A stretch of 22,354 bases of DNA from Candidatus Thorarchaeota archaeon. GTDB taxonomy: Archaea > Asgardarchaeota > Thorarchaeia > Thorarchaeales > Thorarchaeaceae. The position numbers were made by a program, and so were the translations under genes. Shown here piece after piece: positions 1-16,739 of the stretch. Below the pieces are notes generated by a model, which ran no database searches, was not told the DNA's origin, and saw nothing but the letters and a program-made list of their open reading frames with translations. Where the stretch lies: NCBI GenBank assembly GCA_046758445.1, contig JBHIAE010000046.1, positions 1 through 22,354 of the forward strand, written 5' to 3'. How positions within the stretch are numbered: position 1 is the first letter of the stretch; each line of letters begins with the position of its first letter.

Positions 1-451
1 TCCCACCCCTCCCACTCTTTCTGTCCGAGTGTTACATCAGTTTTGCAACAGAGCCTCGTTCTGGAGAACTGTTACTGGCTCATTCCTCCTCTTCGTCTGC
101 AACGATCAACCAGAGCAAGTCCTTGGCAATGACGACCCCGCCTACCCTTTAGGGCACTTCCCTGTCGGTCGTTGTTTCCTACATGAGTTTCTTGGGTGGA
201 TTCTTCTATTGAGAGAGCACAGTTCGATGGGTAAGAAAGAATGTGGCCAAAGAACCTTGCGGAATCCTGTTAGGTTCTCTGACCAGTATGACAGCACACG
301 ACTCTCTAAGGTCTGAGATGTGTACAGACTGTCGTCCTTTCGCCTTCCCTATAAGCACCTACAAAGTGTCGTTTGCGTGAACCTTTGACTCTAGCCTCCG
401 GAGCAACCGCCTACGGATCTTCGTCATTTGCACTCCCTGACATATAGGGAC

Positions 452-709
452 ATGACAGCTTCTAGGATTCTAAGGCGCCACGGTGTGGCGGTGGTCAACA
501 GGCGCAGACGCGCCAGCAACGGCTCTCTTGAGATGCAGTGCCTTGGGTGTGGGGCATGGGTCCCCGTCAAGGAGGGGAGAAGGGTCCAGTGGTCCGGTAC
601 TGGCGTCACTGACAGGACAGTGGCCGGGCTCCCCACCATCGAGTACTACTGCGTGACCTGTGAGGGCATGCTCGACCGTGTGCTATACATCCCAAGGAGG
701 CTCGTGTGA
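452..709 (+). CDS. Small Zn-ribbon-like hypothetical protein (mobile-element operon)
   Basis: Two CxxC pairs (CLGC, CVTC). ATG at 452 follows AGGGA and is preferred over the TTG at 428. The stop overlaps the next start (GTGA). Confidence 0.6.
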   Translation: MTASRILRRHGVAVVNRRRRASNGSLEMQCLGCGAWVPVKEGRRVQWSGTGVTDRTVAGLPTIEYYCVTCEGMLDRVLYIPRRLV

Positions 710-984
710 CCATGCAGGAGGAGCTTCCAAGGATTGAGTTCGTGGGGATGAGAGTCGAGATCAGTATGCTCCGCGCTGGGGAGGAGTCCACCACTAGGCT
801 CTCTATGGAGAGGACTGCGGACGGCTGGACCTTCCACTTCCACGGTCCCAGTCCTCTGGGTGAGACCTGTCCCGACATTGACCTAGACGGTTTCAACAGG
901 GGTGAGGCATGTGCACTACTGTTCAACTGGTTGACGGTGTTTGCCAACACGGAGTTTGAAGGGGTTGTGAATCGTGCAGACTGA
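706..984 (+). CDS. Small acidic hypothetical protein
   Basis: 92-aa ORF overlapping both neighbours; 16 D/E versus 7 R and 0 K. Confidence 0.6.
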   Translation: MTMQEELPRIEFVGMRVEISMLRAGEESTTRLSMERTADGWTFHFHGPSPLGETCPDIDLDGFNRGEACALLFNWLTVFANTEFEGVVNRAD

Positions 985-2233
985 GCAGACGCAGGACGCG
1001 GTTTCAACTGTGGACCTTGAGGGCACTCCCCTCACTCTTGAGATGCGTGAACTTCTGACCTTCAGTGTTGACCATGTGACTGGTCGACGCGTGGCAGACG
1101 AGTGGGACCGTGCGATTCCGACAGCAGTGACCTACAACCCGGAGTCACAGAGGTTTGAGGTCCCCTTCGGGAGGAAGCCTGCTGCTTGGGTCAGGGATGT
1201 GTTGAAGTCTATGCACTTCGGCTGGAACAAGTTCGAGGGCTGTTGGGAGCTGTACACATGGCAGGTCAGACTCTATGAGAGAGAGCCAATTGGCGCGTTT
1301 CTCTCGTCACTGTTCTCCGGGGTGCTGATTGACCCGCCGGAGGTCCCCGATGGCGCACGGCGCAGGTGGTGGAAGGAGGTACGGGACATGCCCGCAAAGT
1401 TCGTCGAGCAACTGGCCGAGGCCACCGATGCGGAGCGTAATAGGGAGGGCGTCGGGCAGTGGCTCAGGTTCGTGAGAGGCTTCAAACAGTACTCTCCATA
1501 CAACATTCTCTCGATACTGATACAGTGCCCCGAGGCTTCCTTTGTTGCAGGAGAACGACATTGGAACAGCCTAGGCCGTTTCGTCAAGTGGGGAGAGAGC
1601 CCTATCATCATTCTAGGGCCACGCTTCAAGACCATCAAGGAGGATGACCCCGAAACCGGAGAGGAGGTCAAGACGAAGGTGTTGGCTGGCTTTCTTGCCC
1701 TGCCCGTCTATGACGTTTCGCAGACTGAAGGAGAATCACTACCTGAACCTATGAGGATTCCGCGGATTGAGGGCGACGAAGGAATGGTTTTCCTTGAAGC
1801 CATGAAGTCCCCCTGTGTGGAACATGAGATAATGTACAACTTCGCAGAGCTTGAGGATGGCCTAGGGGGGCAGTCCGCACGTAGGTGGATTAGAGTAGAC
1901 AACACTGGTTCTATCAACGAGCAGCTTGCTCTCATGGTCCATGAGGTAGCACATGAGTATCTTCATTGGGATGGCCTTGCGAAGCCGAGCCAAAGAAAGC
2001 TTGAAACAAAGAAGTGGCAGAGGGAGGTAGAGGCAGAGGGTGTCGCCTATGTGGTTTGTAGCTTCTTCGGTCTTCCTACAACGTCATCTCCATACCTAGC
2101 TGCTGAAGGGGCAAGTGGCAAGGACATCATGACACTAGTGATAACTTCCCTTGAGGCAGCTTCCAGTATCATTTGCTACCTCATTGAGAAGGCTTGTTGG
2201 GGCAAACCTTTTGCGCTTAAATCATTCAGATAG
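974..2233 (+). CDS. ArdC-like ssDNA-binding (ArdC-N/DUF1738-type) protein with C-terminal zincin metallopeptidase (HExxH) domain and an extra N-terminal domain
   Basis: ArdC-N-type motifs YSPYNILSILIQCP..SFVAG...W..LGRFVKWGE and PVYDVSQTEG; HEVAH at 1940-1954 followed by EVEAEGVAY. Confidence 0.85.
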   Translation: MQTEQTQDAVSTVDLEGTPLTLEMRELLTFSVDHVTGRRVADEWDRAIPTAVTYNPESQRFEVPFGRKPAAWVRDVLKSMHFGWNKFEGCWELYTWQVRLYEREPIGAFLSSLFSGVLIDPPEVPDGARRRWWKEVRDMPAKFVEQLAEATDAERNREGVGQWLRFVRGFKQYSPYNILSILIQCPEASFVAGERHWNSLGRFVKWGESPIIILGPRFKTIKEDDPETGEEVKTKVLAGFLALPVYDVSQTEGESLPEPMRIPRIEGDEGMVFLEAMKSPCVEHEIMYNFAELEDGLGGQSARRWIRVDNTGSINEQLALMVHEVAHEYLHWDGLAKPSQRKLETKKWQREVEAEGVAYVVCSFFGLPTTSSPYLAAEGASGKDIMTLVITSLEAASSIICYLIEKACWGKPFALKSFR

Positions 2234-2253
2234 ACTATCATGGTTGTGGAGTC

Positions 2254-2631
2254 ATGACAGCGCTTAGCTTGGCAAAGATGAAGAAGGCACTAACTCATGA
2301 GGACTTCCTTCATGTGCATGAAGTTCTCTCCCAGCTTACTTCAGACCTCGGATGGACTCGCGCATGGACAACCCTTCAGGATGCGATTGCAGGGACTGTT
2401 GGTACAGGCTGGTACAGCGTCAACCTGACAATCCTCTCTGTCTTCAAGATGGAGGAGCTGATTGGGTACGATGGAGATGTTCCAGAGGTCCTTGCTACAC
2501 TCCAGAATACGCGTAATTTCGGCGAGGTTGATGGAGCATTCTTCGAGAGCATGACGGACAGAGTCAGAAACCAATTGACCAGACACGGTTCGACACGCAG
2601 AAGATGGAGACACGACGAACAGCCTCTCTGA
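2254..2631 (+). CDS. Hypothetical protein
   Basis: 125-aa ORF in the operon, GGAG before ATG, overlaps the next ORF. Confidence 0.6.
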   Translation: MTALSLAKMKKALTHEDFLHVHEVLSQLTSDLGWTRAWTTLQDAIAGTVGTGWYSVNLTILSVFKMEELIGYDGDVPEVLATLQNTRNFGEVDGAFFESMTDRVRNQLTRHGSTRRRWRHDEQPL

Positions 2632-3854
2632 TCCCTGATATTGCATCTGCTAGGAGATTTGAGTTTGCAAGAGTAGTCAAGGACCTAGTTGACCAAGGAG
2701 TCTTCAGCTACCCGGCTGGGTTTGAACAGAAACCATTGCTTCTTACAGCCTATGGTAGAAGACTAGTCGAGGAAACAGGGGTTACTGAGTTCAAGTACTT
2801 GGCTCCGCACCTTCAGGAGCTTGGTAGAGAGATAGGAGTTGACGTCCCTGAGTTTATCCCACTAGGTGATTCGAAGCCGTACGTCATCGGGGCAAAGACC
2901 CCCGAACGTCCCAAGCCTTGGCAACCGGGGGTGTCTGAGCGGCTTGCCAGAGTTATGCTTATGTTCACGGACATAATGGACCCACCATCCATCAATGACA
3001 TATACACCCTTTTCGAATCTGGGTTTGCCTCATCGGCTGATGTTGTCACTCTTGTGATAGAAGACCGACAGGACGCATGGACGCAAGGTCTCGGCTACAT
3101 GGCTTACTACGACGAGATGTCGATGGACAGGATCTATCTAGCTGCTGTTGAACATCTCGCTTCTCTGTCCTTCTCCCAACATAGGACCAGCCTCCTTTCC
3201 AAGGTCCTGGTCAAGAGGCTACCTTACCACTATGAGAGGAGAAACTACGCCTCCGAGGTACAGCTAGCTGCGATAAGGGGTCTTCGGAAAGACAAGGCTA
3301 ATCGGGCAACGAAGGCAGTGTTGGAATTCGTGAAGCGTCAGGAGTGGGAACCTTTTGGCGAGAGCTGCAAAGACAGGCACGCCGTTCTCCTCTATACAAC
3401 TTCGGATGTCCTAGACGAATCACTTGGTTTTCTTATTGAACGTGGTCAAGACATTCAGGAATTGTTGACCTCCTTCATGGACTGTTTGAATTGGTCTTCA
3501 GAGGGGGGTATAGGTGAAGTCATCACTAGGCGGCTCGTTGAAACTAGCGGGGTGGAGGCGTTCGAAGCGTTGATTTCACATCTCAGGTGGGAGAGAATGG
3601 GTTGTGGCTCAGGCGTAAGTGATAATGTCTCTAATGCATTAACCACTCTTGGAACAGAAATCCTCCCAAAGCTGCAGAACTACTTATGGGACAACGGGTC
3701 AATCAATCGCACCGTGGTTGCTATTATGGAACGTATTGAAATCTCATCGAAACCACTGATGGAGTTCTTGGTCCAAAACGCCCGGAGTATATCCGCACAC
3801 GACACGGAATGGCTATTCAAGACAATTCGCAACGGTGATAGCTTATTACCGTGA
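2604..3854 (+). CDS. Hypothetical protein, possible N-terminal winged helix and C-terminal HEAT-like helical repeats
   Basis: 416-aa ORF; 'VKDLVDQGVF...LLLTAYGRRLVE' is wHTH-like; VQLAAIRGL, AFEALISHL and VSNALTTLGTEILPKL are HEAT-like. Confidence 0.65.
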   Translation: METRRTASLIPDIASARRFEFARVVKDLVDQGVFSYPAGFEQKPLLLTAYGRRLVEETGVTEFKYLAPHLQELGREIGVDVPEFIPLGDSKPYVIGAKTPERPKPWQPGVSERLARVMLMFTDIMDPPSINDIYTLFESGFASSADVVTLVIEDRQDAWTQGLGYMAYYDEMSMDRIYLAAVEHLASLSFSQHRTSLLSKVLVKRLPYHYERRNYASEVQLAAIRGLRKDKANRATKAVLEFVKRQEWEPFGESCKDRHAVLLYTTSDVLDESLGFLIERGQDIQELLTSFMDCLNWSSEGGIGEVITRRLVETSGVEAFEALISHLRWERMGCGSGVSDNVSNALTTLGTEILPKLQNYLWDNGSINRTVVAIMERIEISSKPLMEFLVQNARSISAHDTEWLFKTIRNGDSLLP

Positions 3855-4002
3855 TTCACTGCTTTTTCGCATTCCGGCTAGCATAACCCTTCTTCTAGGT
3901 GTTTCGTCATTTTGGTCACGATTTTTGGGAATTAAGAAAAAGGAAGCACCGTTTCGTTTTTTCGATAAGTATGCGCTTTTTAACAGAAACCCTCTCACAA
4001 AA

Positions 4003-4015
4003 GAAAACCTTATAG
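4003..4015 (+). promoter_or_regulatory. BRE-TATA promoter for candidate ncRNA-1
   Basis: GAAAACCTTATAG, about 25 nt upstream of the first paired G (4039). Confidence 0.65.
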
Positions 4016-4038
4016 GCCCAATTGGTCCTCCTTGAGTC

Positions 4039-4140
4039 GGAGACGCAAGACCCGCGGATTCACGTTCGTTAACTTGAGTTTCCTGTTGCTTCAGTCTGCG
4101 TCCCTCCCGGCGGAGATCAACAGGTAGCGGGTCTTCTCCA
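4039..4140 (+). ncRNA. Candidate ~102-nt structured ncRNA (three-way junction, possible pseudoknot), family not recognised
   Basis: Helices GGAG/CTCC, AAGACCCGC/GCGGGTCTT, GGATTCA/TGAGTTT and CCTGTTG/CAACAGG; own TATA box and oligo-T tract. Confidence 0.65.
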
Positions 4141-4151
4141 CCTTTTTCTCC
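4141..4151 (+). terminator. Pyrimidine/oligo-T archaeal terminator
   Basis: CCTTTTTCTCC immediately after the closing helix. Confidence 0.5.
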
Positions 4152-4266
4152 AGAAAATCACGGATTTGTGTTTCAGCTGTCTTCTGCCGTGCTGTCAATT
4201 ACGCTGAAGATTCAGGACAAGCTTCTTATCATCGTTGACTCAGACTCTCGAATTGGTGAGCAAAGA

Positions 4267-5046
4267 TTGGAGCGCGTAGAGCTTGGCTGGGATGATTTCT
4301 GGGCGGAGGTCTTCCGTGTTAGGCATCGTGGGTCGATACCTGGCATCCAGCAGTACGATCAGCTGGTTGTAGACTTCTGCTCTGATGTCTTGGACCTCAA
4401 AGAGGACAACTCTCTTCTGGACATTGCTTGTGGGGCAGGTGATCAGAGCATTCTCTTCGCCAAGCGTGGGATGAGCGTTTCGGGCTTTGACATTGCGGGC
4501 AGTCTGATTGAAATTGCGAAATCTCGTGCAGCTGAGGCCGGACTAAAGATTGACTTCTTCACTGGAGACATGCGCAAGATTGACGTGGACCAACCGTTCG
4601 ACGCCGCAGTGCTTCTCAGTCACAGTTTCGGCTTCTTTGACCACGAAGAGAATCAAGGAGTTCTGAAGGGTGCGTTCAAGGCACTCACAAAAGGAGGTAG
4701 GCTCCTCTTAGATCTCATGAATCCCTACAATCTTCCGCGTTTTCAGAAGACCTGGATGAAGTTAGAGAATGACTTTCTGTTGAGTGACCCACACGTCATC
4801 GATGCCCCAGCAGGCGTTTTGCGAGGTCGACCTGCGACATTCATCGAAACAGAGGCAGGACGAATCGTATTCATGAATGAGGACGCAATGAAGAACAACG
4901 ATATCCGAATGTACACAGCACTTGAGATCAGACACATGCTTGAAGATGTCGGTTTCACAAAGACGGAGTTGTATGGACAGAACAAACTGCCAAGAATGCC
5001 ATACGCCGCGAATTCAGAGCGAATGGTAGTGGTTGCAAGTAAGTGA
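4267..5046 (+). CDS. Class I SAM-dependent methyltransferase
   Basis: Motif I LLDIACGAG, plus GDMR, FDAA and GGRLLLD; TTG start at 4267 after GGTGAG SD (4255-4260) and a CTTATC TATA-like box (4225-4230). Confidence 0.9.
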   Translation: MERVELGWDDFWAEVFRVRHRGSIPGIQQYDQLVVDFCSDVLDLKEDNSLLDIACGAGDQSILFAKRGMSVSGFDIAGSLIEIAKSRAAEAGLKIDFFTGDMRKIDVDQPFDAAVLLSHSFGFFDHEENQGVLKGAFKALTKGGRLLLDLMNPYNLPRFQKTWMKLENDFLLSDPHVIDAPAGVLRGRPATFIETEAGRIVFMNEDAMKNNDIRMYTALEIRHMLEDVGFTKTELYGQNKLPRMPYAANSERMVVVASK

Positions 5047-5085: not shown

Positions 5086-5890
5086 ATGAAGTTAGGTGTT
5101 GTTCTTCGCTTGGTGAATACTGGCTATGACCACAAGGGCATTGGAGAATTTGTTCAGAATGTCGAGGACCCGGGATATGACTACTTACTTGCCTACGACC
5201 TTGTGACGAAGACTGAAGGGTCACCTCCTCCAACAAGTGAACCATTCGTTCTGTTCAGCTATCTAGCAGGATTGACAAGAGGACTGGAGTTTGCAGTAGG
5301 AGTCCTGATTCTACCTTCAAGACAAACAGTACTGGTTGCAAAACAAGCTGCAGAACTTGATCTACTGTCTGATGGACGTTTGCGACTTGGTGTTGCCGTC
5401 GGCTGGAACGAGAGTGAGTATCAAGCTATGAATTCGGGCTTTCACAGTCGCGGAAAGCGTATAGAGGAACAGATCACCGTTTTACGAGAACTCTGGACTA
5501 AGCCATTGGTCAGATTCAAGGGCGAATACCACAATATGGACGGCATTGGCATTGACCCTCTTCCAGTTCAACGTCCTATCCCAATATGGCTAGGCGGGTA
5601 CTCGGATTCCGTCCTGAATCGGGTTGCTCGCGCATATAACGACGCCAGAAGATGGGGAACCAATGATAGAGAGATTGCAAGGCTATGTCGAAGAATCAGG
5701 ACGCACGATGGAGGATCTCGGCATCGGTGTCTGTCTGGATATGCATTTCTCACACGACTGGAACAAGTATGTTGAAGCATGGAGCGAACTGGGAGCGACG
5801 CATTTCGACATCGACACCTCGAGAGCCGGCTTGAAGACTCCACAGGATCATATCGATGTATTGACTCGCTTCAAAGACGAGTGGGGATGA
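5086..5890 (+). pseudogene. LLM-class (probably F420-dependent) oxidoreductase, frameshifted near 5626-5631
   Basis: N-terminal part has EPFVLFSYLAG, AKQAAELDLLSDGRLRLGVAVGW and PIPIWLGG. The C-terminal part (W.ELGATHF) continues in another frame, and the usual DGW motif is missing at the junction. Confidence 0.8.
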
Positions 5891-6049: not shown

Positions 6050-8263
6050 TTGGTCAAGATTAAGGACCCAGATGCCATTAAGAGGCTCATCAAGTCAGAT
6101 GATTATGAGCACAAGAGAATCATCTCAATCAGTGCTCACATCGACCATGGAAAGACAACGACGACGGACTATCTCATGCGCCGTGCAGGTCTGATGAGCG
6201 ATGCCGCTGCTGGACAGGCATTGATGACAGATAGCGATGAAGAAGAGCAAGAGAGAGGAATCACAATCTTCACCTCTGTCGTGCTACTCAACTTCGACGT
6301 TGATGGCGAAGAATACCTCGTGCAGCTGTCCGATACACCTGGGCACCTCTCATTCACTGGTGAGGTTTCCCGTGCTCTCCGTGCCAGCGATGGGGCAGTC
6401 ATACTTGTCGACGCCCTTGAAGGAGTCATGACGCAGACTGAAACAAACATCCGTCTTGCTGTGGGTGGCGAGGCGTGCAAGCCCGTGCTCTTTGTAAACA
6501 AGGTGGATAGATTGATCAACGAGCTGAAGCTGCCACCGGCAAAAGTCTACGAACGCATCGACATCATCATTGCCAAAGTGAATGAGCTGATCAAGAAGGT
6601 CGCTCCAAAGGAATACGCAAAGGATTGGAGGGTCAATTTCCAAGAGGGAAGCGTAGCCATCGGCAGCGCGAAGACTGGCTGGGCATTTACGATGAAGACT
6701 CTTGAGAAGCAGGGAATCAAGCCCACCGTCGTGTTCGAGAAATACGGCGAGGGCGATGAGATGTGGCTAAGAGAAAATCTTCCCCTAGATGATGCTCTTC
6801 TCGAGATGATTGTATATCACCTTCCGAATCCGAAGGACGCTCAGAAGTACAAGATACCAAGGATATGGAAGGGAGACTTGGAAACTCCTGAAGGGAAAGC
6901 CCTTCTGGAGTGTAATCGCAATGGACCGCTTCTCGGTATGATTACAAAGATCTTTGTGGACCCGAAGAGCAAGAGACCAACTCTCATTGGACGAGTCTTC
7001 TCCGGCACCATCAAGTCAGGTCAGACCATGAGGCTCGTTGGAATGAAACAGAATGTTACAGTGAAAAGACTAGGCGTGCAGGAGATTACCGACATCCTCC
7101 CAATGGACAAGGTTCCCGCAGGAAACTTGTTCTCTGTATTTGGCTTCATATGTCCCTCTGGCGAGTCTTTCGTTGAGGTTGATTCAGACATGCCAGCTTT
7201 CGAGGCCATCGAGTACGTGAGCGAGCCAGTTGTCAGTAGGAGCATCAAGCCAGTAGACCCGCAAGACATTGCGAAACTTGGTGAAGTTGTTTCAAAATGG
7301 ATTATGGCTGATCCCACAGCCAGATTCATTCATGACAAGGAGTCAGGCGAATACCGACTAGACGGCATTGATCCACTACAGATAGAGATTCTCACAAAGC
7401 GCATCAACGAGCAGGTAAAGATCTCGATCTCCGAACCTATCATTGTGTACCGTGAGAAGATCACCGAGCGTGGTGACGAGTTCCACACCAAATCGCCAAA
7501 CGGTCACAACCGCCTACGCCTCTATGTTGAGCCGCTTGATGATAAGACAGTGGAGCTAATCAGGAGGAAGCGGATCACACCCGACCAGAACGCCCGAGAG
7601 CGTGCTCAGATTCTTCGTGATGAGGCAGGATGGGACGCAAAGAAGGCAAGGAAAATTCTCGACATCTATGAGTCCTCAATGCTTGTAGATGCCATGAGTG
7701 GAGTGCAGAGGTTCGACAGGATATTCTCCTATCTGCAGACTACGTTTCGAGATTTCATTGACCAGGGTCCACTGGCACGCGAACCCGTGATGGGAGTAAA
7801 GGTTGTGCTGACAGATGCGACTGTTCATACTGATCCTGCCCACACAGGATACAACGAAGTCGCCACAATGACAAGTTCTGGACTGAACATGAGTTTCCTG
7901 ACAGCTACTCCGGGTCTCTTTGAGCCAATCCTCAACACTGACATAAAGACCCCCACTGATACACAGGGCGGAGTGATAAAGGTCCTTACCGGTCACAGGG
8001 GACAGGTTGTCACGATTGAGGCCGAGGAGGACACAGTCACGATTAAGGGTGTCCTACCCACTGCGGAAACTATCGGCATAGCAGACGAGTTCAGAAGTGC
8101 AACTGCAGGGCGGAGCTTCTTTGGATATGAGTTCAGAGGGTTTGAGCCACTACCGGGCAGTCTGCAAGAAGAGAAGATTCTGGAGATCCGAAAGCGCAAG
8201 AAGATGCCCGAACAGATGCCGAGCCTGAGCTCATGGAGCAGATGGGTGTACAGACGAACCTAG
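6050..8263 (+). CDS. Translation elongation factor 2 family GTPase, divergent archaeal paralog (aEF-2p-like)
   Basis: G motifs AHIDHGKTT, RGITI, DTPGH and NKVD; full 737-aa length; diphthamide loop reads DPAHTG; not next to rps7/rps12/EF-1A. Confidence 0.92.
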   Translation: MVKIKDPDAIKRLIKSDDYEHKRIISISAHIDHGKTTTTDYLMRRAGLMSDAAAGQALMTDSDEEEQERGITIFTSVVLLNFDVDGEEYLVQLSDTPGHLSFTGEVSRALRASDGAVILVDALEGVMTQTETNIRLAVGGEACKPVLFVNKVDRLINELKLPPAKVYERIDIIIAKVNELIKKVAPKEYAKDWRVNFQEGSVAIGSAKTGWAFTMKTLEKQGIKPTVVFEKYGEGDEMWLRENLPLDDALLEMIVYHLPNPKDAQKYKIPRIWKGDLETPEGKALLECNRNGPLLGMITKIFVDPKSKRPTLIGRVFSGTIKSGQTMRLVGMKQNVTVKRLGVQEITDILPMDKVPAGNLFSVFGFICPSGESFVEVDSDMPAFEAIEYVSEPVVSRSIKPVDPQDIAKLGEVVSKWIMADPTARFIHDKESGEYRLDGIDPLQIEILTKRINEQVKISISEPIIVYREKITERGDEFHTKSPNGHNRLRLYVEPLDDKTVELIRRKRITPDQNARERAQILRDEAGWDAKKARKILDIYESSMLVDAMSGVQRFDRIFSYLQTTFRDFIDQGPLAREPVMGVKVVLTDATVHTDPAHTGYNEVATMTSSGLNMSFLTATPGLFEPILNTDIKTPTDTQGGVIKVLTGHRGQVVTIEAEEDTVTIKGVLPTAETIGIADEFRSATAGRSFFGYEFRGFEPLPGSLQEEKILEIRKRKKMPEQMPSLSSWSRWVYRRT

Positions 8264-9775: not shown

Positions 9776-12700
9776 CTACCTCTCGCTAGGTGATATCGCT
9801 ACCAAAAGCTTCTCCTCGCCGAAGGTGTATTCCTCTTGGAAGCTACCGGTGGGCTTCTTCGCCTTCTTCAAGCTGGTGGCAAGTGTTTCCTCCGTGATAT
9901 ATCCTACATGAAGGTCAACTGCTTCAGCCATTCGCTTACTTGAGGAGTATTGAACTTCGATCATCTCGCTGACGTTTAGATCAGCTGACTTGCGCAAGTT
10001 CTGTACACGTCGAACGAACTCTCGTGCCAATCCTTCTAATTCCAGCTCATTTGTCAGTTCTGTCGTCAACGCTGCCACGTACGCGCCTTCTGCGGCTGTG
10101 GAAAAGCCCTCTTTTGCTTCGACTATGACCTCGACTTCCTCGGGCAGGATCTCGAACTTGTCGTCATTCACACGCACTTCTACAGATTCGCCAGCTTGAA
10201 ACTTAGTCGATACCGTACGCGGGTCCAGACTCATTATTGCATTGCGTATTGCAGGGAATTGGGAACCATACTTTTGACCAAGTTGCTTTGGGAGTGGTTT
10301 GAGCTGATAGTTCATCACCTCTGCAGCAACGTCGAGCAAACGAACACTCTTGACATTCAGTTCATCGCCAATCAGGTCTGCATAACGCAAGAGGATCTCC
10401 TGTTCTTTATCCAGTCCAACAGCAAATGCGATTTCAGATAACGGTTGACGAAGCTTGCGATTTGCTATGTTTCTTGCTGCGTGACCTAAGGACACCAATC
10501 GAAGCACTAGCGCCATCTCATTGGTAAGCACATTATCTACTGCATCGCTCACGGGCCAATCGCAGTGATGAACGCTCTCCGGTGCGCTTGTGTCAACACT
10601 CCTGACCAAGTTCTGGTGCATCACTTCTGACATAAATGGGACAAATGGGGCAAGTAGTCGGGAGAGATTGACCAAGACTCGATACAAGGTATCATATGCC
10701 GCATTCTTATCTGCGTCAGCCTCATCACTTGCACCTGATTCTGCCCAGAAGCGGCGACGGCTTCGTCGCAGATACCAGTTACTCAGGTGATCAATGAATC
10801 GGTCTACAACAGCTGCCGCCATGTTTGGTTCATAGGATTCTAAGTATGCAGTGACATCTCGAGTAACCTCGTTCATCCGGGAGAGTATCCACCGGTCTAG
10901 TAAGCCGGGAGTAGTCTTCAAGCCCTTCTTGGGAACCCACCCGTCTATGAGGGCATATGTGACAAAGAATGAATAGACATTCCATAGAGGGATTAGAAAA
11001 TGACGCCTAACTTCGTCACCGCGAGAATAGCCGAAAACAAGGTCTTTTTCGGGCCTATGTGAACAGAAGAGCCAACGCATCACATCCACTCCCATTTTAC
11101 TTGCGGCCTCATTAAACTCTATCATATTGCCCCAAGACTTGTGCATCACTCTGCCATCTTCACCGAGCAAGAGGGCATATGTGAAGACATGTCTAAATGG
11201 TGCTCTACGTTCTAATATGGTGCTCATTGTTAGAAGGCTATAGAACCAGTTTCTGAATTGACCTGGGAAACTCTCACTGATGAGTTCTGCAGGGAACCAC
11301 TTGTTCCAATACTTTCTGTCTGAGTTGTACCTTATGGTACTCATTCCAACTATTCCCGCATCTAACCAGGGATTACCTACGTCTGGGATTCTCTTCATCC
11401 TCTTGCCACATTCACTGCACTCTACCTCAATCTCATCAATAAATGGTCGATGAGGTGAATGACCCTCGAACATATCCCAGCCTGCTACAGCGCGCTTCTT
11501 TAGTTCCTCTCTGCTGCCTATCACATCAAAGTGGCCACAGTCTGAGCACTCCCATATGGGCAATGCGAGTCCCCAATATCGTTTCTTGGAAATCATCCAG
11601 TCATCCATATTCCTTAACCAGTCTAATTCCCTCTCTTTTCCAAAGGAAGGATGCCAGTTTGTTTCGTTGGCAACAACTTCCATGATTTGATATCGAAGGT
11701 TGCTCTCCTTCTGTTCTTCAGTGACCTCTTCATAGGGGATGTCAAGTTTGGCTCCCATTGAAATGAACCACTCATCAACAAGACGAAAGACTAGTTCCTC
11801 CTGACAACGCCAGCACACAGGATATCTGTGAGTATAGTCCTCTACCTTGTAGGTCAGTCCCTTCTTGGTTAGACTATCAAAGATGGGTTGGGCAACAGTA
11901 TTGACATTCATTCCAGACAACCAATCAAACCCGTCAATGAAGATACCATTCTCTGTAAGGGGTGCGATTGCAACAAGATTGAATTCCTTGGAGAGTTGGA
12001 AGTCCTCCGCTCCGCAGCCCGGGGCGACGTGCACGATCCCGGTGCCTTCCTCTTCTCCCACTTCATCCCATAGTATCACCTTGTGTCTTCCAGCAACTCC
12101 ACTCTCCTTTTGAGCCGGGAGTTCGTCAAAGGGACCGTGATAGAGCCAGCCCTCCATGTCAAAGCCAAGTAGCTCTCCTTCGACTTCGTAATCGCCTTTC
12201 AATATGTGTAGAGTCCCTCGGCTCAGGTAGAAGATCTCCTTGCCCTGACGCACTCTCACATAGGTCAGTTCGGGACCGACTGCAGCTGCTACATTACTGC
12301 TCAGTGTCCAGGGGGTCGTTGTCCATATCAGCAGACTCTCTCCGGGACGGTCCACTAACGGGAATCTCAACGTGATGCTTGGATGTGTCAACTCACGGTA
12401 GCCCTCGGTGACTATCTCATGTTGACTGATGGCTGTTCCACATCGAGCACACCACGGCATCACATCTCGACCTTTGTATATCCAACCCCTTTCATGACAT
12501 GACTTCAATACTGTCCAGATGGTGTAGTTGTTCTCTTCAGAGAATGTGTAGTATGATCCGCCAACCTCGGGCATTCCAAGTCTACCAACTAGCTGCTCTA
12601 CTGTATCTGTGACTGGACCATCTACACCATCAATGGTCATGACTGCCATCGGGTCACTGCCGAGTGCATCATGAAGCTTCTGAAGAGTTTCAAGATTGTC

Positions 12701-16350: not shown

Positions 16351-16380
16351 GATGGCGACTTTCTAAAGTTGGATAAAGTC

Positions 16381-16504
16381 GGTGGGTGTGCGGGAGCTCG
16401 ATCTCCAGGTGCATACTCAAGGCGAGCATGTGGGCTAGTTTTTCGTTACATGCCCTCAATTACGAAACTCCCCCCTCCTACCACGATTTCCCGCGTGCTC
16501 GCCA
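16381..16504 (+). ncRNA. Candidate ~124-nt structured ncRNA, family not recognised
   Basis: 14-bp helix GGCGAGCATGTGGG/CCCGCGTGCTCGCC, plus GGGTGTGC/GCATACTC, GGAG/CTCC and TTTCGT/ACGAAA; G-U pairs indicate the + strand; pyrimidine-rich tail. Confidence 0.6.
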
Positions 16505-16739
16505 CCTCATTCCTTCTCAAAATCGCAGACGGCGGTTTCTGTATCGGTGTTCTGTTAATCTTTCACATATTATAGAGAGTCCTGTGCATTACTACCTGGT
16601 TTAACAATTCGGACAAGTTCAGCATTCCCTAGTGTTCTGGCGTCTGTCACTTCTTCTTGCCATGCCTGTGTGCTACATCGTATCCTGAATCATTACCGTT
16701 GGTCGAAGTCGGTTCCGCTTGCCAATAAGGCAACCACAT

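Follow-up and report, generated by a model that had tools for sequence, protein, structure and literature searches.

Small RNAs whose loops mask ribosome-binding sites are known from archaea, sRNA154 and sRNA41 of Methanosarcina mazei being examples (review, PMC5867862). These are intergenic, independently transcribed stem-loop scaffolds that expose a C-rich loop complementary to Shine-Dalgarno (SD) sequences (PMC5867862), features which they appear to share with the RNA described here, encoded at 4039-4140 on the plus strand of a contig from a 3.25-Mb Thorarchaeota (Asgard) MAG. Positions throughout refer to the window, that is, the whole 22,354-nucleotide stretch of DNA that was analysed. 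The Thorarchaeota RNA differs from the two M. mazei RNAs in that no sequence homology to them is known, in that sites complementary to its hairpin apex occur at chance level, and in being far more rigidly conserved, with a single copy per family genome and an invariant closing helix.

Y RNAs provide a second comparison, since they are likewise ~100 nt long, have their ends paired in a long bulged stem and carry a pyrimidine-rich loop and a U-rich 3' tail. Assignment to this class was nonetheless rejected because a Ro60/TROVE protein (PF05731) was found in 0 of the 31 family genomes, in searches that did detect the positive controls, and there is no sequence or model similarity. Three-way-junction riboswitch aptamers (purine, THF-I) also measure ~100 nt, with a P1 closed by both ends and two further arms, and the resemblance extends to covarying stems, invariant positions, a U-tract after P1 and a location upstream of a gene. 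Unlike such aptamers, however, the Thorarchaeota RNA matches no Rfam riboswitch, its loop-bulge pairing does not covary, its junction strands are variable whilst its hairpin tip is invariant, and convergent genes split it from the downstream gene in several genomes. The raiA motif, an orphan structured non-coding RNA (PMC10861870), shares with it recognition by comparative genomics only and a strongly conserved structure, whilst the Thorarchaeota RNA is archaeal, much smaller and restricted to one family. A full-text literature search found no paper describing the 4039-4140 RNA, and the analysis supports an undescribed, free-standing structured RNA with a three-way junction.

Limits, strand and class of the RNA gene

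The region 4039-4140 is a real structured RNA gene, well beyond chance. The covariance model matches 4036-4147 at 119 bits, and the predicted mature RNA (~102 nt, plus strand) extends from GGAGA at its 5' end to UCUCC-A at its 3' end, as judged from the covariance-model match, the fold, the G-U pairs and the non-coding length differences among homologs. The plus strand folds at -44 kcal/mol (z = -3.6), a stability reached by 0 of 200 shuffles. An RNA on the minus strand was rejected, since the fold is weaker there (z = -2.05) and many G-U pairs would turn into A-C mismatches; such pairs are common in the alignment, which places the gene on the plus strand. A 31-aa small ORF at 4032-4127 was rejected as well, because homologs differ in length by 3, 7 and 10 nt, differences not confined to multiples of three that argue against coding, and because the changes are compensatory.

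A promoter can be read from the sequence at 4002-4016 (plus strand), comprising a purine-rich BRE (AGAAAA) and then a TATA box, (C)TTATAGG. TTATAGG occupies 4010-4016, 24 nt before G4039, and in 44 of the 45 homologs that keep TTTATA the distance from the end of the TATA element to GGAG is 23-25 nt. Homolog promoters read CTATAGATTTATAGG, or GGTTTTTTAGAG in one clade, and compared with its kin the window promoter has lost 7 nt (ATAGATT) of the palindrome CCTATAGATTTATAGG. A TATA-to-start spacing of 23-25 nt is the standard archaeal geometry, so that the transcription start is put at the first base of P1. Beyond the other end of the RNA, at 4141-4149 (plus strand), lies a pyrimidine/T-rich tail, CCTTTTTCT, which includes a T5 tract at 4143-4147. 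The 25 nt after P1 in homologs are 42% T against a background of 26%, and a T-run of 4 or more follows P1 in 32 of 61 homologs compared with 7% of random 25-mers. Judging by this composition the tail is likely an archaeal U-tract terminator, with the long run missing in about half of the homologs.

The window and its homologs were compared with known RNA classes. ARAGORN reported 0 tRNA genes in the window, and Rfam 15 (4227 models) gave 0 matches there at the gathering score; relaxing the threshold to E<=10 on 3900-4300 yielded only two chance lncRNA matches (E>1), and 10 divergent homologs searched at E<=0.1 returned only the neighbouring tRNA. tRNA and tRNA-Sec were rejected on this basis, ARAGORN and the Rfam models RF00005 and RF01852 being negative on the RNA even though the adjacent tRNA-Gln was detected. 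There was likewise no 5S rRNA match (RF00001) at E<=10 on 3900-4300, which rejects that class; canonical 5S genes are present elsewhere in four kin genomes (60-63 bits), with a weaker match elsewhere in genome G000. Canonical copies of RNase P RNA and SRP RNA elsewhere in these genomes led us to reject a replacement of either. A C/D box sRNA was rejected because UGAUGA is absent from 4039-4140 and CUGA turns up solely within the variable internal loop, and there in some clades only, and an H/ACA sRNA because the 3' tails (ACC, AUC, AUU, CUU, AAA etc.) hold no conserved ACA. The first-pass annotation of this DNA, made from the sequence alone, had described the BRE-TATA with a start G about 25 nt further on and the oligo-T tract, and had recognised the transcript as none of tRNA, 5S, SRP, C/D or H/ACA RNA; these statements agree with the results above, and its inference of an undescribed RNA agrees with the lack of a family match in the window and in the 10 divergent homologs.

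Three-way-junction fold and invariant hairpin

Covariation was assessed on an alignment (A3) of 60 distinct homolog sequences. The nested structure of P1 and P3 is 95.9% paired across these sequences and shows double-sided changes in 15 of 27 pairs (81 cells), whilst 0 of 500 shuffles reach any of these measures and sliding the partners by 1-3 columns as a control lowers pairing to 43-54%. Nine divergent homologs folded independently adopt the same three-arm layout, with z from -1.4 to -4.9. The P1, P2 and P3 helices named in the first-pass annotation (P1a, P1b, P2 and P3a as read from the sequence) are present where it had placed them, and the covariation among Asgard homologs that it had called for upholds the nested P1/P3 fold.

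P1 is a closing helix of 13 bp that joins the 5' and 3' ends of the RNA. Its outer part, P1a, is near-invariant: the 5' strand GGAGA (4039-4043) pairs with UCUCC (4135-4139), with per-pair counts of 56-60 of 60 for GC and 54-58 of 60 for AU among the distinct homologs, and a single A follows directly 3' of the helix (UCUCC-A). Between P1a and P1b lies the bulge CGCA (4044-4047), the sequence and length (0-5 nt) of which vary among aligned homologs; one homolog (L116) has no bulge and a continuous P1. The 5' strand of P1b, AGACCCGC (4048-4055), pairs with GCGGGUCU (4127-4134), and all 8 of its 8 pairs are changed on both sides somewhere in the alignment, e.g. CG to UA in 11-12 sequences. P2, a variable hairpin arm that together with the U-rich J2/3 linker spans 4056-4081, is retained as a hairpin in 53 of the 60 distinct homologs despite unrelated sequences (UCAC/GUGA, GCUA/UAGC, CAUCA/UGAUG, CUC/GAG), and is absent from two (L074 and L111). 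P3a pairs CCUGUUG (4082-4088) with CAACAGG (4118-4124); 5 of its 7 pairs are changed on both sides, and some clades carry UUUCCU/AGGAAA or UGAGU/ACUCA in place of this helix. P1b, P2 and P3a therefore vary freely yet stay paired, as would be expected of a scaffold.

Above P3a, a variable internal loop (4089-4093) leads into the P3 apex at 4094-4117, a near-invariant stretch of 24 nt in the homolog alignment consisting of GUCU-G-CGUC, the loop CCUCCC and GGCG-G-AGAU. The CUUC/GGAG extension of P3 drawn in the first-pass annotation is not kept in other clades and has been dropped. CGUCCCUCCCGGCG is identical in 19 of the 19 homologs found by BLAST alone. In the MFE fold of the window RNA, CCUCCC (4103-4108) is the hexaloop at the tip of the arm, with a G-G mismatch at 4098/4113 below it, and a C-rich tract is apical in most of the nine divergent homologs folded independently. 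The apex can pair in two registers, either CGUC/GGCG together with UCU/AGA, or UCUG/CGGA, the latter being favoured in L112 and G024. P1a and the P3 apex are without covariation because they hardly vary.

A further pairing had been proposed from the window, in which GACGCA (4042-4047), spanning the P1 bulge, is the exact complement of UGCGUC (4097-4102) in P3 and could give a pseudoknot or a switch. The complementarity is indeed exact in the window, but its conservation and covariation fail. Across homologs 75% of the interaction is paired and a single double change is seen, a result that 476-484 of 500 shuffles match; its central pairs are unpaired in 14-25 of ~45 sequences. The bulge half varies by clade (CGCA, CACA, GGCA, GAU, UUCA, AC, AAG or none) against a fixed loop half, and in the L042 clade two changes break two pairs with no compensation. 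The pseudoknot was accordingly rejected as a conserved feature, and with it a topology like that of THF-I, in which a loop pairs with a bulge.

The compact three-way junction and the invariant nucleotides are also all that would recommend a small self-cleaving or otherwise catalytic RNA, a possibility raised in the first-pass annotation that none of the tests favours. The strands at the junction are variable and only 1-3 nt long, the hairpin tip rather than the junction core holds the invariant bases, no ribozyme family of Rfam 15 matches, and the RNA is a single-copy gene with promoter and terminator, associated with no repeat or mobile element. We regard catalysis as extremely unlikely.

Family range and gene neighbourhood

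BLAST found the RNA in 15 of 16 same-genus genomes and in six other genera. A pattern scan limited to a single genome per species gave 45 loci in archaea, all of them labelled Thorarchaeota, Promethearchaeota or uncultured archaeon, together with 18 bacterial matches that were set aside as chance since none fits the covariance model. With a first model, R1, a single copy came up in 25 of the 26 genomes sampled from the window's family and in 0 of 125 genomes of 26 other Asgard families; the one family genome apparently without it, G024, has a divergent copy at the syntenic position. The second model, R2, built from 64 sequences and applied with a cut-off down to E<=0.05, found exactly one copy in each of the 26 family genomes and again none in the 125 genomes of the 26 other families. 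In this sampling the RNA is thus specific to one Thorarchaeota family. A tRNA query run on other Asgard families, to look for a counterpart beside tRNA-Gln, matched nothing and so has no bearing on this range. No copies were found in IMG/VR, where five 16-mer matches were rejected as viral copies because they do not fit the model. A partial copy of the last ~24 nt of the RNA (locus L090, G010:C21 ~9944-9967) lies after a run of N, ~70 nt downstream of a full copy, and is probably a scaffolding artefact. Elsewhere in the window a second RNA candidate was noted at 16370-16515, the 3' ~90 nt of which (~16419-16507, containing CTCCCCCCTCCT) are multi-copy (8 matches in the window genome, as many as 14 in relatives) and occur in 30 of 31 family genomes; membership of the same RNA family was rejected on account of this copy number, R1 and R2 giving only one match per genome.

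The RNA sits in a conserved block made up of tRNA-Gln(CUG), the RNA, a 259-aa SAM methyltransferase (MT), an EF-2 paralog, an M20 peptidase and, on the opposite strand, IleRS. In 30 of 41 loci ARAGORN detects tRNA-Gln(CUG) upstream of the RNA and in the same orientation, at distances that are mostly a few hundred nt, and two further cases (L111 and G024) come from the Rfam tRNA model. The tRNA-Gln genes of L125 (G024:C1, 1723-1829) and L111 (1729-1835) carry an intron of ~35 nt, and it is these that the Rfam model detects and ARAGORN misses. The window holds no tRNA at 1-4016; its homology to the closest relative ends ~45 nt upstream of the RNA, where a gene cassette containing ArdC-N starts. 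The proximity of tRNA-Gln, a discriminator-like A at the end of P1 and gene insertions on both flanks might suggest a tRNA-derived or tRNA-like element, either as a relic of the adjacent tRNA or as a signal for processing or integration linked to it. However, ARAGORN and the Rfam tRNA model are negative on the RNA, which has no T-loop or D-loop signatures, no encoded CCA and a strong promoter of its own, and such an origin is hardly credible.

Downstream, at 4267-5046 (plus strand), lies the MT gene, encoding a class I SAM-dependent methyltransferase of 259 aa (Pfam Methyltransf_25). Its longest ORF opens at GTG 4168, but the true start is TTG 4267, as the N-terminus MERVELGWDDFW aligns with the ATG starts of homologs, and the extra 33 codons of 4168-4266 are untranslated leader. 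The protein is 59-78% identical among homologs at a constant length of 259 aa, and its range, 25 of 26 genomes in the window's family and 0 of 125 elsewhere, is that of the RNA. An F420-dependent luciferase-like oxidoreductase gene (5086-5775) separates MT from the EF-2 paralog in the window; it was unmatched in the homologous loci searched, where the distance from MT to the EF-2 paralog is mostly ~100-200 nt, and it is therefore probably a recent insertion. The EF-2 paralog (6050-8263) is mostly 77-98% identical across genera whose MTs are 57-78% identical, and scores below the NCBIfam aEF-2 cut-off (660 versus 738 bits).

In most loci MT follows immediately downstream of the RNA and in the same orientation, and this arrangement is one ground for reading the RNA as a cis-regulatory leader or riboswitch, whose invariant core would be an aptamer and whose ligand-stabilised P1 and U-tract would terminate transcription before the MT and EF-2-paralog genes (an OFF switch). 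The RNA ends 13-160 nt before the MT upstream motif, RNA and MT share their phyletic range, which first suggested a riboswitch, invariant junction-distal nucleotides with covarying stems are typical of aptamers, and a T-rich tract comes immediately after P1. Several findings speak against it. Convergent genes lie between RNA and MT in at least six loci (L037, L061, L083, L084, L099 and G024; ORFs of 114-271 aa, including a VapBC-like pair, a Roadblock-like protein and others), with the RNA and its promoter intact, and in G086 the RNA is found 289 nt upstream of the EF-2 paralog with no detectable MT. The RNA matches none of the known riboswitch models. From P1 to the MT upstream element the spacer is unconserved, we saw no conserved anti-terminator pairing or expression platform, P1 and the T-rich tract being all that could serve, and by-eye inspection of the RNA and the MT 5' region across loci revealed no consistent complementarity.

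MT furthermore has an upstream element of its own, outside the RNA at 4215-4233 (plus strand), reading (G)GACAAGCTTCTTATCATC in the window and (CAT)GACAAGCTTCATATC across the family, where its 16-19 nt are conserved almost as strongly as the RNA core at the homologous loci. The element lies ~35-37 nt before the MT start in loci read directly (automatically assigned starts, often wrong, scatter between 19 and 42 nt), and it stays with MT where other genes are inserted. It is probably the promoter or operator of MT, or both, which agrees with the earlier suggestion that the downstream gene has a separate promoter; the TATA-like TTCATAT within it would give a short leader containing an SD. No second copy of the element occurs within any one genome at 0-1 mismatch, and a regulon operator was thus rejected, as was an upstream ORF, the ATG being unconserved (AGG in the window, ATA in others). 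The convergent insertions, the genome that lacks MT, this promoter-like motif that moves with MT and the unconserved spacer together favour an independent RNA gene, and we consider the leader unlikely, although the shared range and the adjacency of RNA and MT in most loci leave some weight to a cis-acting or MT-linked role.

One such role would make the RNA the partner or substrate of the neighbouring enzyme, with its 5' end or a nucleotide being methylated, or with the RNA regulating MT. The restriction of both to the same family, their adjacency in most genomes and the unusual conservation of MT at a fixed 259 aa are in keeping with this, but adjacency inside a single family may be inherited gene order, and one genome has the RNA without a detectable MT. 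The AlphaFold model of MT (pLDDT 86) most resembles small-molecule and peptide N-/C-methyltransferases (NmbA, PH 1WZN, CypM, CcbJ and the glycine-sarcosine methyltransferase GSMT) rather than RNA methyltransferases, which lowers, without removing, the idea of an enzyme acting on RNA. Such a partnership appears very unlikely.

Proposed role and significance of the RNA

The reading that we prefer is a free-standing gene for a stable RNA of ~100 nt, specific to this family, whose product would act in trans, as RNA or RNP, in a function linked to translation; we give it a probability of about 0.55. That the gene is free-standing and undescribed, as first put forward, is supported by its own promoter, the covariation, the lack of any Rfam or tRNA match and its single-copy presence across one family. 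Transcription would be started by the BRE/TATA at or just before GGAGA, P1 would seal the ends, and the U-rich tract would end the unit. P1b, P2 and P3a would serve as scaffold helices under purely structural selection, whereas P1a (GGAGA/UCUCC-A) and the P3 apex, apparently selected base by base, may be read sequence-specifically by a macromolecular partner. Constant parts read by a partner would imply an RNA acting in trans, whether as an RNP or as a regulator that works by base pairing, and we infer that the invariant P3 hairpin is its business end. A role as RNP scaffold, also suggested in the first-pass annotation, is plausible.

The hairpin sequence points to one mechanism in particular. 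CCUCCC is the core anti-SD sequence, and it is presented apically both in the window RNA and in most of the nine divergent homologs. When 1498 long ORFs of the window genome were taken as a crude gene set, AGGAG, GGAGG and GGGAGG proved to be enriched 3-6 fold upstream of their starts. Since the loop equals the anti-SD core and the genome uses GGAGG-type sites, binding of the loop to ribosome-binding sites is the most concrete mechanism, with a protein that binds C-rich RNA as the alternative; the loop would engage either G-rich ribosome-binding sites or such a protein, and translation would thereby be influenced. Genome sites complementary to the apex over 10, 11 and 12 nt number 60, 13 and 6, compared with 63, 12 and 3 for the reversed and 57, 13 and 3 for the shuffled sequence, and long antisense targets of the P3 apex were rejected given this chance frequency; three 12-nt complementary sites lie near start codons. 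The adjacent MT and EF-2 genes have ribosome-binding sites of the GGUGA/GAGGUG type, for which the loop is a poor match. Taken by itself, the anti-ribosome-binding-site detail is a tentative proposal that we place on the doubtful side, and the evidence fits a protein-bound RNP just as well. The neighbourhood (tRNA-Gln, the EF-2 paralog and IleRS) fits a translation-related role but is not proof of one.

More speculatively, and with rather poor odds in our estimation, a translation-linked module specific to Thorarchaeota might have this RNA as its sensor or its RNA subunit, and would take the form of either an Asgard-only riboswitch gating the MT and EF-2-paralog genes or a dedicated RNP whose invariant CCUCCC hairpin engages the ribosome, SD sites or the EF-2 paralog. 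If true, the former would make it the first riboswitch class restricted to Asgard archaea.

Asgard archaea are the closest prokaryotic relatives of eukaryotes, and to our knowledge almost nothing is known of their non-coding RNAs. The comparative support for the present RNA is strong, comprising a single copy in each sampled family genome, covariation, a base-invariant hairpin of 24 nt and a match to none of 4227 curated families. Encoded within a block of translation genes (tRNA-Gln, the EF-2 paralog and IleRS) and beside a methyltransferase restricted to the same lineage, it offers a well-defined RNA that can be cloned for RNA-protein pull-downs, ligand screens and structural work.
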